Assembly: GCA_019057375.1 (NCBI GenBank)
Contig: DXJF01000074.1
Coordinates: forward strand, 1-35,125
Direction of reading: 5' to 3'
Source: Candidatus Heimdallarchaeota archaeon
GTDB taxonomy: Archaea > Asgardarchaeota > Heimdallarchaeia > Heimdallarchaeales > Heimdallarchaeaceae
Length of the DNA: 35,125 bases
Every line of letters begins with the position of its first letter. Position 1 is the first letter of the stretch. A program made the position numbers and the translations under genes. The notes under the pieces were generated by a model. The model had not been told where the DNA came from, made no database searches, and saw only the letters and a program-made list of their open reading frames with translations. Below, in pieces: positions 8,282 to 13,401 of this stretch.

Positions 8282-8938
8282 TTACACTTTAGTCTCTAAG
8301 AGATATAGTCTTTTCTTTAAATTATAGAACCTTTTAGCAAATTCTAAACTTGAAATATCGTAATCTTCAAATTGTTGTTCAATTGCGAAAAGTTCACTTT
8401 CAACATTCAAAATCTCGTCATCAAGGTGTTTTTGTTTTTCTTGTTCTAGAGCTCTGTTAGTAAGATGTTGAGATTTCTTGCCTTTAATTTCATTCAAGAT
8501 TCTTTTCTTATCTTCAAGAATTACAGCTAATTGCTCTTTCTGCGTAATTATTGGATTAAGTTGTTCTTGAGAATCTACAATTTGAGGTTTTTCTTCAATA
8601 CATCTTGCAGGAACTTTTGAGAAGAGTCTTAGTAATTCCACTATAACTTGGAACAAGCGATAACTGTCTCTCCAACGTGCTAGCATTCTCATCTCGAGAA
8701 TACCTTCTGGGGTCATATTTGGATGAGTAATTGGACTAAGAATTTGAACTACTGGAGGAGATTCGGGATAATTTTCTGGTAATTTTATTTCAACATCTAC
8801 GAATATTTCTCCTTCATTTGTGATTACTGGAACAAAACCTTTCCAAGTTGTTAGATCACCATCTTTTGGCTCGAAAGCATAAGCTCTCTCCATTACAAGA
8901 CTATATTCTTTTGCTAGGACACTATCTGGAATAGGCAT
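8282..8938 (-). CDS. Ubiquitin E2 variant (UEV) + coiled coil + steadiness-box protein (Vps23/Vps37 ESCRT-I-like)
   Basis: UBC fold motifs IKLPENYPESPPVV and ITHPN..EGILEM...W. The catalytic Cys position is Glu82. The C-terminus FEDYDISSLEFAKRFYNLKKRLYLL resembles the SB/Mod_r box. Confidence 0.8.
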   Translation of the reverse strand: MPIPDSVLAKEYSLVMERAYAFEPKDGDLTTWKGFVPVITNEGEIFVDVEIKLPENYPESPPVVQILSPITHPNMTPEGILEMRMLARWRDSYRLFQVIVELLRLFSKVPARCIEEKPQIVDSQEQLNPIITQKEQLAVILEDKKRILNEIKGKKSQHLTNRALEQEKQKHLDDEILNVESELFAIEQQFEDYDISSLEFAKRFYNLKKRLYLLETKV

Positions 8939-9100
8939 ATTTTACACCTTTATTTCGATAATCTATTTCTATAGATTAATTTCAAATAATTAGAACAAAT
9001 TGTACCTTAAAAACCTTCGTAAACTCATTTGTTGAAGTAGAAAACACCTAGCACCTATTCAGCATGTTTTGTGTTTAAATATTAAGTTTAAATTATAAAA

Positions 9101-9250
9101 GTGAATCAACACGCACGTTATGAAACTTGGTTAAACTTGCCAGAAGGCGTTTAACTGTCGTTTGAGTGGGTCCCCTACACGTGCGGTGAGGGGAAGGAAT
9201 CGTTAGGAAGGAGGGTACCTGGAAGAGAAGCAATGTTATGAGCAGCATTA
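9101..9250 (-). ncRNA. Putative TnpB omega-RNA (reRNA) scaffold overlapping the tnpB 3' end; 5' boundary approximate
   Basis: Hairpin TCCCCT/AGGGGA (9171-9194), hairpin GTTAAAC-GCC/GGC-GTTTAAC (9130-9155), and a 7-bp complementarity between 9112-9118 and 9179-9185 (possible pseudoknot). The position matches known TnpB reRNAs. Confidence 0.6.
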
Positions 9251-11100
9251 TCGTGTGTGTTGACCTGTTGACCACATTTCTTACAAGGAGCAACATCATA
9301 TAGCCCTTTTTGACGAGTAAGTACCCCTCCACACCCATAATGAACGGTACTGGTGTGATAAGGACGAACGGATTCTAACTGGACATCATAGCCCAACTCC
9401 AAAGAAGCTAACCACACAGCCTTTTTGTAAATAAACAAACTGTCAGGCATGGTGTAAATTGCTTTAGCTAAAGCACCTTTGGTACCAGTGGGATCAACAG
9501 TTAAACGTTCAATCTTGAGTACTTGACACTTCTTTTTCACCATCACTGCAGCAAGAAAGTGGGGGAGAAGACGAGTGATTTCGCGAAGGATACGATGACG
9601 ACGAGTATAGACTCGATTGAGTTCGCCTTTGAGTTTACAACTACCTCGAGAGTTATACTCCTTTCGTTTACGGAGTAAACCTTTGTTAAGTTCGTCTAAG
9701 ACTTTCGTACTGAGATGCTCATACTGTGCAGCTAAATCTAGTAAATCTTGAGGGAGAGGGATAGGGGCGTTAAACGTAATCATGTATTGGCCTAATCGGT
9801 TAATATCTACTCCAAGGATGGATGTTTTCTTTGCAGAAATATTTCTTAGATAGTGGTGGAGAAGTCTAGTTGAACGGAAACAAGCATGCACTCCTTCTAG
9901 TACCACATCTACCCGAGGTTTGAACCTAGGCGCTTGTCCACTCGTTACTTGAAAGACTTTGATGTGAGCACCATTATTGAGATACTCTACTACTTTTGGT
10001 GGAAAATGAACTTGAGCAGTTAATTTTTGTTTTCCTTTACTTGGAAAACCGAGTTCGGTCCATCCTTGCTTCTGGATTTGTGCAGTCACTTCTTGGGCAT
10101 TCCCTTGGCGGGTGATAACATAGTTTTTATTCATTAATAATATGATTGGTAATCTTCCTTTCTTTTTTCGTTTAAATGGTGGAGGAACAACATTGGTTAT
10201 AGGTAGAACCTTGACTAACTGAGGGACACTCTGCATGTAATAATCAAAGAGTGTGAAAACGACTATTTGCCTAACGGCTGAAAAGAGTTTTCGGGAAGGT
10301 TTGCCTATTATTACTGCTAGTTGTTCAGCTAAGGTTTTGAGACTTTTCCATCGAGAAGCTTGAGGACTATTGATCCATGAGGTGAGAAAAGGGACAACAG
10401 TTGTTTGTTCTTTCTTTAAGAGCTTGAGTTTCTTCAGAAACGCTTGTTGATTCTTCGTCAGTTGTGGGAGGAGGGAAAATTCGTGCTGGTGGTAAAACAA
10501 CGCATCATCCAGAGCTTGCAAGACATCGCGTTGAGTAGAAGGGGGGAGAAGGGTGTTTAATTGGAGGAAATTGGAGGAATAGGTCATCTTATGCTTTTTT
10601 CTCCAGTAGGAATCGGTTTGGGATCGGGTACTAGTGAGGAGATTGATGATATACCTTCTTTTGAGTCGCCAAAAGTTTTCTAGACTCCGTTCAGTATACG
10701 ACGAACGACCAAAAATCAGCCATTCTATCAACTGTTGAGGGTTTTTTAGCAGAAAGTTGAATAAGCCTTGCACTTTCTTCTCCTTGTTTATTTTTCCTTT
10801 GATAGCGATGTGCAACCAATGGAAGGCACTTTCAGTAATATTCGAGCTTTTTCCCACTTTTTTGCAGAGTTGGCGGGTGAAGAATCCTTCTTTCGGATTG
10901 GTTCGAAACAGTTCCACCGCTTGTGTAATCACTTGAGGAGTGAGTAGCTTGTACTGTTGTTCTTCTAGTGATCTTATCCTTTGGTTAATCTCTTCTCGTT
11001 GGACTTGGCCTGCACAGTTGAGCACTACTTGATAGCTTCTCATCACTCCCTTTGAAGTAGGGGGGAGGAGTGTTGGTAGTTTGGTTGCGTATGTGACCAC
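9175..11100 (-). CDS. tnpB: Large TnpB/Cas12f-like RNA-guided RuvC protein (641 aa)
   Basis: RuvC-I ILGVDIN (D432), RuvC-II LKIERL (E531), zinc-finger region TSTVHYGCGG...CKKCG, and RuvC-III-like NTHDNAAHNI. GTG start. Confidence 0.88.
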   Translation of the reverse strand: MVTYATKLPTLLPPTSKGVMRSYQVVLNCAGQVQREEINQRIRSLEEQQYKLLTPQVITQAVELFRTNPKEGFFTRQLCKKVGKSSNITESAFHWLHIAIKGKINKEKKVQGLFNFLLKNPQQLIEWLIFGRSSYTERSLENFWRLKRRYIINLLTSTRSQTDSYWRKKHKMTYSSNFLQLNTLLPPSTQRDVLQALDDALFYHQHEFSLLPQLTKNQQAFLKKLKLLKKEQTTVVPFLTSWINSPQASRWKSLKTLAEQLAVIIGKPSRKLFSAVRQIVVFTLFDYYMQSVPQLVKVLPITNVVPPPFKRKKKGRLPIILLMNKNYVITRQGNAQEVTAQIQKQGWTELGFPSKGKQKLTAQVHFPPKVVEYLNNGAHIKVFQVTSGQAPRFKPRVDVVLEGVHACFRSTRLLHHYLRNISAKKTSILGVDINRLGQYMITFNAPIPLPQDLLDLAAQYEHLSTKVLDELNKGLLRKRKEYNSRGSCKLKGELNRVYTRRHRILREITRLLPHFLAAVMVKKKCQVLKIERLTVDPTGTKGALAKAIYTMPDSLFIYKKAVWLASLELGYDVQLESVRPYHTSTVHYGCGGVLTRQKGLYDVAPCKKCGQQVNTHDNAAHNIASLPGTLLPNDSFPSPHV

Positions 11101-11130
11101 TTTGTCTCACTAAGTATATCCTCAAAATGC

Positions 11131-11144
11131 TATTTAAACTCGAT
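11131..11144 (-). promoter_or_regulatory. Archaeal BRE/TATA promoter for tnpB
   Basis: The minus strand reads tcgagTTTAAATA about 30 nt upstream of the GTG start. Confidence 0.55.
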
Positions 11145-11172
11145 AAAATCCCTTGTTTTCTGGTGGTGCTTT

Positions 11173-11229
11173 TCACTCCTCAGTTGTGTATGGTTTATCA
11201 TGATCCTTGGTGACCTCATCAGAGAGTGA
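11173..11229 (-). ncRNA. Candidate box C/D sRNA (no target identified)
   Basis: 57 nt: TCACTC-tc-TGATGA ... CTGA-g-GAGTGA, i.e. box C, box D and a 6-bp terminal stem. The internal ATGA(TAA) could be D' or C'. Confidence 0.45.
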
Positions 11230-11538: not shown

Positions 11539-13401
11539 ATGACTCGAGTAGCTGTGATTAATCAAGAGAAATGCAGACCTGATAAATGTGGGCATCTATG
11601 TTACAAAGTTTGTCCTTCTGTTCGAGCGGGAAGAGAAACAATTACTTTTGAACCCCCTAGCAACAAAGCTGTTATTCATGAACCATTATGCTCTGGGGTT
11701 GCAATTTGCGTTAAGAAATGTCCTTTCCATTGTATTACTGTTGTTAATCTTCCTGAAGAATTGGATAAAGAGGTTACACACAGATATGGAATAAATGGAT
11801 TTAAACTTCACAGATTACCAATGCCAAAAATAAGTAAAGTTATTGGTTTAGTAGGTCAAAACGGTTCTGGCAAAAGTACAACTCTCAATATTTTGCAAGG
11901 AAATTTACAACCAAATTTAGGAAGATTTGATCAACCACCAGATTGGGATGAAATTATAGAAAATTACAGAGGAACAGAAGCTCAATCTTATTTTGAAAAA
12001 TTAGCAAATGAAGAGTTAAAAATTATCCTCAAACCGCAAAATGTAGATAAATTACCTAGAGTTACAAAAGGAAATGTTTCTGATTTAATTTCAAAAGTTG
12101 ATGAACGTGGTTTAAAAGATGAAGTCAAGGAAATTTTCTCCTTAACCAAGGTTTGGGACAGAAATATTTCGAAATTGAGTGGGGGTGAACTACAAAAATT
12201 AGCAATTGCAGCTACTATAATTAGAGAAGCAGATGTATATCTCTTTGATGAACCGACCTCATATTTAGATGTTCATGAAAGAGTCAAGATAGCCCAATAC
12301 ATCAATGAAATGAAATCACCAAATCACACTCTTATTGTAGTTGAACACGATTTAGCTATGTTAGACTATCTGAGTGATCATGTACATATGTACTATGGAG
12401 ATGCTGGTGTTTACGGTATTGTAAGTCATCCATATTCAGTGAGAGAGGGTATCAATATCTTTCTAGATGGATATATTCCTTCAGAAAATATGCGTTTCAG
12501 AGCTGAACCAATTATCTTCAAAAAAGCCAGTCTCGAAGATAAAGTCACTTCTCAGAGATTAGCAATAAGATATGGTGACATGACTAAAAAATTTGATGTT
12601 TTTGAGCTTTCAGTTAAAGGTGGAGAACTCTACAAGGGAGAAGTAGTGGGAATCATTGGACCCAATGGAATTGGAAAAACAACTTTTGTAAAAATGCTAG
12701 CAGGCATTCTTGAACCTACAACAATATCTGAACCTACTGAATTATTAGTTCAGATGGCAACTAGAGACAAAGAAGCTAATGGTCTTCAAAAGAAGGATCA
12801 GGGTGGCGGAATCAATGAACAATTAAAAGTAAGCCATAAACCACAATATCTCTATACTGAGTCAGAACAAACCGTTGTAGATTATTTACGTGAAATTAAT
12901 CCCGTAATGTTAACAAGTGGTTGGCACAAATCAGAAATTATTGAACCTCTAAAGTTCTCTAAACTTCTAGATTCTAAATTGTGTGACCTTTCAGGAGGAG
13001 AACTTCAAAAAGTTTCAATTGCAGCATGTCTAGGGAGAAAAGCTCATTTGTATCTTCTAGATGAACCTTCAGCATATATCTCTTCTGAGGATAGAGTAAA
13101 TGTAGCAAAAGTAATTAAAAGAGTAGTTTCACATTATGAGATGGGATGTTTTGTTGTTGAACATGATATGATGATGTTGAATTTCTTCTCTGATCGTTTA
13201 ATGGTTTTTGATGGAATTTCTGGCATTGAAGGAAAAGCTATGAGAATCGCAAGAGTACAAGCTGGGATGAATACCTTTCTAAGAAAGATGGATATAACTT
13301 TCAGACAAGATCCCCGAACCCTTCGACCTAGAGTCAACAAAAAGGGTTCCCAACTAGATAAGAAGCAAAAATCTGAAGGAAATTACTTCATAGCAGCTTA
13401 G
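11539..13401 (+). CDS. rli: Ribosome recycling ATPase ABCE1/RLI
   Basis: N-terminal Fe-S domain CRPDKCGHLCYKVCP, two ABC domains (GQNGSGKST, LSGGELQK; GPNGIGKTT, LSGGELQK, LDEPSAY) and the C-terminal RPRVNK. Confidence 0.97.
   Translation: MTRVAVINQEKCRPDKCGHLCYKVCPSVRAGRETITFEPPSNKAVIHEPLCSGVAICVKKCPFHCITVVNLPEELDKEVTHRYGINGFKLHRLPMPKISKVIGLVGQNGSGKSTTLNILQGNLQPNLGRFDQPPDWDEIIENYRGTEAQSYFEKLANEELKIILKPQNVDKLPRVTKGNVSDLISKVDERGLKDEVKEIFSLTKVWDRNISKLSGGELQKLAIAATIIREADVYLFDEPTSYLDVHERVKIAQYINEMKSPNHTLIVVEHDLAMLDYLSDHVHMYYGDAGVYGIVSHPYSVREGINIFLDGYIPSENMRFRAEPIIFKKASLEDKVTSQRLAIRYGDMTKKFDVFELSVKGGELYKGEVVGIIGPNGIGKTTFVKMLAGILEPTTISEPTELLVQMATRDKEANGLQKKDQGGGINEQLKVSHKPQYLYTESEQTVVDYLREINPVMLTSGWHKSEIIEPLKFSKLLDSKLCDLSGGELQKVSIAACLGRKAHLYLLDEPSAYISSEDRVNVAKVIKRVVSHYEMGCFVVEHDMMMLNFFSDRLMVFDGISGIEGKAMRIARVQAGMNTFLRKMDITFRQDPRTLRPRVNKKGSQLDKKQKSEGNYFIAA

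Follow-up and report, generated by a model that had tools for sequence, protein, structure and literature searches.

The DNA analysed here (the window) comprises 35,125 nucleotides of a Candidatus Heimdallarchaeota archaeon genome (assembly GCA_019057375.1, contig DXJF01000074.1, positions 1 to 35,125) and encodes on its minus strand (9175-11100) a protein of 641 amino acids related to TnpB and Cas12f. The open reading frame (ORF) most likely belongs to an IS607-family insertion sequence, confined to a Heimdall-group (Asgard) lineage, as the gene for its TnpB-type RNA-guided protein, and the copy in the window is an insertion polymorphism. The frame is uninterrupted, as the preliminary description of the locus stated; its first codon is GTG, and its G+C content is ~0.41 and that of the surroundings ~0.33. 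The GTG is a plausible start codon: a putative promoter box (TTTAAATA), which is kept in 18 close copies and still recognisable in distant ones, lies ~30 nt 5' of it, a spacing that fits a leaderless mRNA, and distant homologues have the N-terminus M-x-T-Q at the equivalent position, whereas Met20, the first residue of a 622-amino-acid reading from ATG 11043, is not conserved in them. The reading of 641 amino acids is therefore reasonable, and its residue numbers are used throughout. Compared with 14 paralogues or orthologues, the window copy has ratios of non-synonymous to synonymous substitution rates (dN/dS) of 0.11-0.19, so the protein is under purifying selection.

Sequence libraries detect just the C-terminus of the protein, and weakly: the match to the target nucleic acid-binding (TNB) domain PF07282 has an E-value of 1.8e-4, under the curated cut-off (several paralogues are over it), the scores against the NCBIfam models of Cas12f2 and TnpB are far under their cut-offs, and the phmmer match in the PDB is CnCas12f1 (E = 4e-5). 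With an alignment of 22 members as input, AlphaFold2 gave a model (predicted local distance difference test score 87, predicted template-modelling score 0.69) that matches Cas12f and TnpB in Foldseek with an E-value of 3e-9 and a probability of 1.0. VIA comparisons of the model gave Z scores of 13.7 for AsCas12f, 12.8 for CnCas12f1, 12.2 for ISFba1 TnpB and 12.0 for ISDra2 TnpB, matches that span residues 1-610 with 330-360 residues aligned, and a Z score of 9.7 for Fanzor2. The model has the wedge (WED), recognition (REC), RuvC and TNB architecture shared with TnpB and Cas12f, including a zinc-finger/TNB insert between RuvC-II and RuvC-III, and its residues 13-285 form an all-helical block that separates the first WED strand from the WED/RuvC core and as modelled is an enlarged REC lobe. 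The oversized TnpB/Cas12-like protein of the preliminary description, with its extra length N-terminal in the recognition lobe, is thus recovered in the superposition on ISDra2 TnpB, Cas12f and Fanzor that was proposed there, which returned a Cas12f/TnpB-type fold along the whole protein; a special link to Fanzor, also suggested there, is not, Fanzor2 being a poorer match than Cas12f or TnpB and the VIA comparison with it giving no sign of a specific affinity.

The catalytic residues were compared in 22 diverse members of the family (39-83% identical) and in a wider superfamily of 386 clusters, which a family profile retrieved from 1.84 billion cluster representatives and the best 150 of which supplied the residue counts given here and in the table. 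Asp432, Asn434, Arg435, Glu531, His587, Cys590, Arg596, Asp602, Cys606, Cys609, His616, Asn618, Ala620 and Asn622 are invariant in the 22 members, among them the RuvC-I Asp432 and RuvC-II Glu531 that the preliminary description had called intact. The RuvC-III motif of the window protein reads VNTHDNAAHNI, and single-sequence and profile hidden Markov model alignments with solved Cas12f/TnpB chains (four in the profile alignments) agree that His616 occupies the slot of the catalytic Asp of N-A-D-x-N-A-A, as had been proposed. Equally, His587 of the zinc finger (H587-YG-C590 ... C606-KK-C609) falls on the Cys that opens the CxxC...CxxC of Cas12f and TnpB, making the first pair the HxxC that had been read from the sequence; in the superfamily this ligand is His in 109 rows and Cys in 18, and the remaining three Cys are essentially invariant. 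The third position of the canonical D-E-D triad is His clade-wide, with no Asp in 123 representative rows, and the superfamily diverges to less than 30% identity while D432, E531, H616, the N-A-A helix and the Arg and zinc ligands of the TNB domain persist. The preliminary description had asked whether the string HDNAA is conserved in the clade: the His is, as is the zinc-finger His587, but the residue after it, Asp617 in the window copy, may be D, S, N, A, F, H, I, K, T, E, L, Y, Q or V, and with at least 14 identities at this position a catalytic Asp shifted by one is ruled out. Since both histidines are conserved together with the other catalytic residues, they are signatures of the clade, not decay.

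An empty site is present in three sister genomes, G013, G009 and G011, the flanks of which are 93-96% identical to those of the window; in it, the sequence ending at 9113 is joined directly to that beginning at 11192, which delimits the element as 9114-11191. In the orientation of the element, the junctions are ...GATAAACC|ATACACAACTGAGG... on the left and ...TTTCATAACGTGC|GTGTTGATTCAC... on the right, and those of the empty sites are ...AAGCC|GTGTTG, ...AAACA|GTGTTG and ...AAATC|GTGTTG. Judged against these three sites, the element has the attributes of the IS607 family: it lacks terminal inverted repeats, its target site is not duplicated, and just C(G/A)T is common to both ends, a short shared core that is expected for crossover by a serine recombinase. 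The nucleotides left of the crossover differ among loci, being AAGCC, AAACA, AAATC and AAACC in L028, L030, L027 and the window, respectively.

Conservation among copies begins ~30 nt upstream of the GTG, or ~90 nt upstream if counted from ATG 11043, and extends to ~62 nt beyond the stop codon, where it ends sharply in non-coding sequence at 9112-9114. The conserved block on the upstream side belongs, in several relatives, to the 3' end of a gene, which at one locus (L018:3475-4068) is intact and encodes a protein of 197 amino acids with a MerR-type helix-turn-helix and a resolvase domain, scoring 167.5 bits against NF033518, the NCBIfam model of the IS607 transposase (cut-off 110). By coordinates, a TnpA match lies 60-110 bp upstream of the tnpB-like match at the loci of at least eight relatives. 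A serine-recombinase tnpA upstream of tnpB is thus a property of the family, but not of the window copy or its genome. The gene, which had been described as stand-alone, therefore belongs to an IS607-family element, given the tnpA directly upstream in relatives and the empty sites in three sisters. Four PF00239 genes on other contigs were considered and rejected as the cognate tnpA, and no Y1 (IS200/IS605) TnpA was found in the host genome.

Full-length copies begin A|C(C/T)GT-AGACTACTGAGGGGTGAAAACTTNNCCAATCTTACC, ahead of tnpA. The first 24 nt of the left end in the window match the left-end (LE) box of L003 at 20 of 24 positions without gaps, and its nucleotides 20-42 resemble the stretch that precedes the tnpB promoter, which is a repeat located at the 3' end of tnpA in full-length copies; tnpA and the second half of the left end were probably deleted between two similar boxes. 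The left end starts with C(C/T)GT in 13 of 16 copies (14 of 17 counting the CCAT of the window), preceded by A in 13 of 16, a count that rises to 15 of 16 when CCTT and CTTT are included, and this left-flank consensus is a candidate for the transposon-associated motif (TAM) or for the recombinase core. A resemblance of the left host flank to the right end (ACCAAGGTTCAT versus ACCAAGTTTCAT, 11 of 12 positions) was examined as a possible relic right end and rejected, a local alignment of the 140-nt flanks scoring no better than shuffles. The first of these sequences (11194-11211) lies ~8 nt from the junction, at an offset nearly equal to that of the second (9117-9133, minus strand), and the likeness could be due to chance or to target-site mimicry by the transposase.

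Beyond the catalytic core, the 3' region of the gene has, as far as sequence can indicate, the anatomy of a TnpB omega-RNA or reRNA aimed at its own vacant site, with a scaffold overlapping the 3' end of the gene and a guide taken from the flank of the right end. The fold z-score of this region is -2.34, and the synonymous substitution rate (dS) drops to 0.45 in the last codons of the ORF. The pseudoknot that had been suggested from the window sequence is supported by covariation in 21 copies, three of them at ~40% protein identity: six of its seven pairs have changes on both sides (CACAUAC/GUAUGUG and UGCAUAC/GUAUGCA are compensatory examples), 95% of cells are paired, and none of 500 shuffles reaches the observed values. 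The two hairpin stems vary too little to supply covariation support, which was dropped for them, and a long-range UAUGA/UCAUA pairing proposed by RNAalifold is invariant and hence uninformative. No Rfam family, RAGATH-18 included, matches in the window. The copies diverge in sequence exactly after the pseudoknot helix, the next base being T in 19 of 21 copies, and the predicted guide (TGTTGATTCACTTTTATAAT), to which a length is assigned by analogy with TnpB, is identical in the empty sites of the sister genomes and has no other match in the host genome. The features of the element are listed in the table.

Table. Features of the IS607-family element, its tnpB-like gene and its predicted guide RNA (window coordinates)
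Feature	Position	Strand	Remarks
Whole inserted element	9114..11191	minus	2,078 bp, ends +/-2 nt; tnpA-less IS607-family derivative
Left end of element	11150..11191	minus	looks like LE terminal box fused to internal repeat
Putative promoter box TTTAAATA	11131..11138	minus	~30 nt 5' of GTG start
tnpB-like ORF	9175..11100	minus	641 amino acids from GTG; 622 if ATG 11043 is the start
RuvC-I Asp432 codon GAT (GVDINR)	9805..9807	minus	22/22 in family; 106/106 superfamily rows
RuvC-II Glu531 codon GAA (KIERL)	9508..9510	minus	invariant in family; superfamily E 107, D 17, H 1 of 125
Zinc finger (TNB) H587-x2-C590 ... C606-x2-C609	9274..9342	minus	R596 and D602 invariant between halves
His616 codon CAC, RuvC-III catalytic Asp slot	9253..9255	minus	superfamily H 118, Q 5, D 0 of 123
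Predicted omega-RNA scaffold	9112..9245	minus	3' limit firm, 5' limit approximate
Predicted hairpin 1	9171-9194	minus	spans stop codon
Predicted hairpin 2 (composite)	9123-9163	minus	
Pseudoknot	9179-9185 (hairpin-1 loop CGCACGU) with 9112-9118 (ACGUGCG)	minus	directly before flank
Predicted guide TGTTGATTCACTTTTATAAT	9092..9111	minus	host flank at right end

There are 120 close homologues equal in length to the window protein, and all those with a named source are from Heimdallarchaeota, in keeping with the Asgard-like host that had been guessed from the sequence. The count of copies that the preliminary description called for gave ten full-length ones in the host genome (3.47 Mb, 89% complete), 39-82% identical and nine of them free of internal stop codons, alongside ~17 other, more canonical TnpB genes. 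The same genome has 12 right ends of the subfamily to which the window copy belongs, five of which lack a full ORF. The omega-RNA scaffolds of these five (G000, C65:8488-8566, C81:24659-24737, C40:63-141, C124:13365-13440 and C7:12638-12714) are 81-91% identical to that of the window, the one on C7 retaining a short C-terminal fragment of the ORF, and may be relics or solo guide RNAs. The protein query finds matches in all 18 genomes of the same genus that were searched (1-17 per genome, plus many fragments), and in an even draw of 91 genomes from the phylum it finds matches at E <= 1e-25 in eight, mostly within the family and order of the window.

The full-length element consists, in order, of the left end, a serine-recombinase tnpA, the putative promoter, the tnpB gene for 641 amino acids, and a predicted omega-RNA extending from within the 3' end of tnpB to the right end; the window copy has lost tnpA but retains its two ends as well as promoter, ORF and omega-RNA. 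In the mechanism proposed from ISDra2 and IS607 TnpB by analogy, from which the expression of the RNA and the use of a TAM are likewise predicted, the 3' part of the transcript would fold into a scaffold of two hairpins locked by the pseudoknot and bearing ~20 nt of host flank as a guide. The complex of protein and RNA would locate a vacant site by the left-flank motif and the match to the guide and cut it, and homologous repair would then restore the element. Catalysis would take place at a RuvC centre of D432, E531 and H616, with His in place of the third carboxylate, and the zinc finger would be held by His587 and three Cys.

Such an active D-E-H RNA-guided homing nuclease is the probable identity of the protein, to judge from its sequence. 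This reading is favoured because the three RuvC residues D, E and H are strictly kept across a deep superfamily, along with the N-A-A helix and with the Arg and zinc ligands of the TNB domain, and because the family continues to be linked to a transposase and the insertion is polymorphic. Other nucleases of the RNase H fold, too, can have either Asp or His as a metal ligand, as in the DEDD/DEDH tetrad of Argonaute. Clades with a conserved RuvC-III Asp-to-His replacement have been read as probably active (Altae-Tran 2023, PMC10691335).

Several observations weigh against an active homing nuclease. The cognate TnpA was not found in the host genome, which is 89% complete (no tblastn match; none at 1e-10), and ten diverged copies under selection without it fit a function retained by the host better than purely selfish homing. 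Copies within the genome are at most 82% identical, hence there is no sign of very recent bursts. The hairpin stems of the RNA pair in 97% of cells among 18 close copies, which is no better than shuffles, the stems barely varying. His is a poorer Mg2+ ligand than Asp, and the literature searched holds no biochemical data for any D-E-H TnpB.

The protein could instead be a nuclease-dead RNA-guided DNA binder of the TldR or Cas12k/Cas12m kind, in which the Asp-to-His replacement abolishes cleavage and binding alone serves, for example, in transcriptional repression or in marking a site for the transposase; this is possible, if rather unlikely. It would account for the loss of the canonical third carboxylate throughout the clade and for purifying selection maintaining ten diverged copies although no cognate TnpA was found in their genome. 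However, D432, E531, H616, the N-A-A helix and the TNB Arg and zinc ligands are invariant over a superfamily of less than 30% identity, whereas known dead derivatives lose such residues irregularly or are truncated (PMC10691335). The window copy, moreover, is an insertion polymorphism and not a syntenic fixed gene, its guide matches its own flank alone, and the family is still linked to an intact IS607 TnpA in relatives. The attributes of TldR-type proteins, namely an eroded or truncated RuvC domain, a fixed syntenic locus and a guide directed to a distant host promoter, are all absent here.

An extension of the active-nuclease reading would have the D-E-H centre function as an alternative active site that prefers another metal or cleaves in another pattern, in a Cas12-sized TnpB whose REC lobe was enlarged independently in Asgard archaea, and would give the ten selected, transposase-less copies a role at the level of the host, for example in RNA-guided control or defence, instead of simple homing; taken as a whole, this is unlikely.

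The element lies between a gene for a ubiquitin-conjugating E2 or ubiquitin E2 variant (UEV)-like protein (8282-8938, minus strand) and the gene for ABCE1/RLI (11539-13401, plus strand), and other neighbours encode a glycosyltransferase and a short-chain dehydrogenase/reductase. It is very improbable that the tnpB-like gene has been domesticated at this position, for example to regulate the E2/UEV-like or ABCE1 genes, and has ceased to behave as a transposon. The element does occupy the divergent promoter region, with its guide 154-173 nt upstream of the E2/UEV-like start codon, and tnpA is absent; yet the closest sister genomes (flanks 93-96% identical) possess the same neighbouring genes without the element, the guide is merely the adjacent flank, as for any TnpB element, and the copy number varies from 1 to 17 among genomes of the same genus, in which decayed fragments are present. 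A decaying pseudogene or chance ORF with degenerate motifs, which weak Pfam and NCBIfam matches under curated cut-offs and the loss of tnpA might suggest, is refuted by the data on conservation and selection (an intact frame of 641 codons with dN/dS of 0.11-0.19, 120 close homologues of equal length, 386 superfamily clusters with the same motifs, and a confident fold prediction), and the lone decaying copy contemplated in the preliminary description is ruled out as well by ten copies in the genome, homologues elsewhere, His traits conserved in the clade and the same dN/dS values.

The product of the gene at 8282-8938 has the UBC/UEV fold (PF00179, E = 4e-13; UEV, E = 2e-6) and is of the Asgard 'eukaryotic signature' type. 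The absence of a CRISPR array, of cas genes and of tnpA from the vicinity, as stated in the preliminary description, extends to the whole window, in which no CRISPR-like array, tRNA, tnpA or cas gene was found. The sole tandem repeat of the window has a unit of 24 nt (7-94; 3.7 copies, 92% matching) and is located at the contig end within an open frame.

Within the tnpB-like ORF itself, codons 241-300 counted from ATG 11043 (10144-10323, minus strand) are under strong synonymous-site constraint: the median pairwise dS is 0.36, compared with 0.9-1.5 elsewhere, at an average dN, and third positions are invariant over long runs. Neither a stable fold (z = -0.64) nor an overlapping ORF was found in this segment as the cause, and it could hold an RNA element, a promoter within the gene or a site for DNA binding.

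Two loci related to the window copy require comment. The closest database homologue (P0003, 90% identity) was rejected as independent evidence, its contig joining the 5' flank of the paralogue on C145 to the 3' part of the window copy. The corresponding arrangement in a near-identical public assembly (L036, GCA_002505645.1, DAVS01000069.1, 1-7869) begins as the C145 5' flank and 5' part, with 100% identity to G000:C145:61855-64654, and continues as the window copy, of which it has the 3' part and right flank; it is either an assembly chimera across paralogues or a real recombination between two copies. Another paralogue (C145 90708-92600) has an intact tRNA-Val(CAC) directly upstream, at 3529-3606 of L006 (G000:C145:89208-94100), and a tRNA-like sequence after its right end, whereas no tRNA gene adjoins the window copy.

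Among more distant relatives, several proteins of 1,200-1,800 amino acids (P0176, P0175 and P0157/P0272 from Odinarchaeota, and P0147, P0264 and P0224) carry a D-E-H TnpB-like module at the C-terminus. The N-terminal ~1,000 residues of these giant proteins match no Pfam family. Two giants from Odinarchaeota (1,669 and 1,784 amino acids) have weak MazE/AbrB matches near residues 650-700, before the TnpB module.

The locus offers a complete and delimited test case, with exact ends, a predicted guide RNA containing a covarying pseudoknot, a natural target and an intact cognate transposase in relatives. It bears on whether a D-E-H centre cleaves, nicks or only binds, and on how, among the archaea closest to eukaryotes, a TnpB came to be as large as Cas12. 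The gain is incremental, the protein class having already been catalogued.

Of the known systems, Cas12f (type V-F; AsCas12f, PDB 8dzj; CnCas12f1, PDB 8hr5) provides the best structural and sequence matches and shares an N-A-D-x-N-A-A-type RuvC-III context, but the window gene is transposon-borne and has His for Asp, and the window contains neither the CRISPR array nor the cas adaptation genes that accompany type V effectors. Fanzor1 and Fanzor2 are likewise TnpB-derived, larger than TnpB and of IS607-like ancestry; unlike the window protein they come from eukaryotes or viruses, the residue known to be rearranged in them is the RuvC-II Glu and not the RuvC-III Asp, and the Z score is 9.7. With TldR, Cas12k and Cas12m the family has in common a missing canonical RuvC-III carboxylate and a guide RNA encoded alongside, but it keeps D and E strictly, its C-terminus is untruncated, its locus is mobile and polymorphic, and it is not accompanied in the window by a sigma factor, a flagellin gene or Tn7 genes as partners.

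The IS607-family TnpB proteins with an omega-RNA or reRNA (ISFba1 TnpB, PDB 8iaz; PMC11061315) resemble the present system in the serine-recombinase tnpA directly upstream of tnpB (here in relatives), in the lack of inverted terminal repeats and of an evident target duplication, in an RNA scaffold that overlaps the 3' end of tnpB and takes its guide from the flank, and in the fold of the whole protein (Z = 12.2). They are ~390 amino acids long and have a D-E-D centre, in contrast to the ~640 amino acids, the helical REC block of ~270 residues, the D-E-H RuvC centre and the HCCC zinc finger of the window family, the RNA of which falls outside the Rfam families.

The suggestion that the window holds an undescribed system is not supported, the element being of the IS607 family and a TnpB clade with RuvC-III Asp-to-His and no C4 finger having been described (PMC10691335). 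That survey reported six branches with an altered RuvC-III, the largest of which, RIIIr-4, has Asp replaced by His, lacks the C4 finger and includes archaeal TnpBs linked to ribbon-helix-helix (RHH)/MazE genes; it also reported rearranged branches confined to archaea, one of them associated with a serine recombinase (Ser-6). By its published description, RIIIr-4 agrees with the window family in the clade-wide replacement of the RuvC-III Asp by His and in having archaeal members, and perhaps in a C4 finger that is not intact, and the weak MazE/AbrB matches in the giant Odinarchaeota relatives hint at kinship with that clade. The window family, in contrast, keeps the finger as HCCC, probably still a zinc site, and is tied to an IS607 TnpA instead of a small RHH/MazE gene; it is also specific to Asgard archaea and, with 641 amino acids and a large REC lobe, much longer than the members described. 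The protein class is already catalogued, with RIIIr-4 as the candidate branch by description, and the window family differs from the described members in size, HCCC finger, IS607 linkage and Asgard host.

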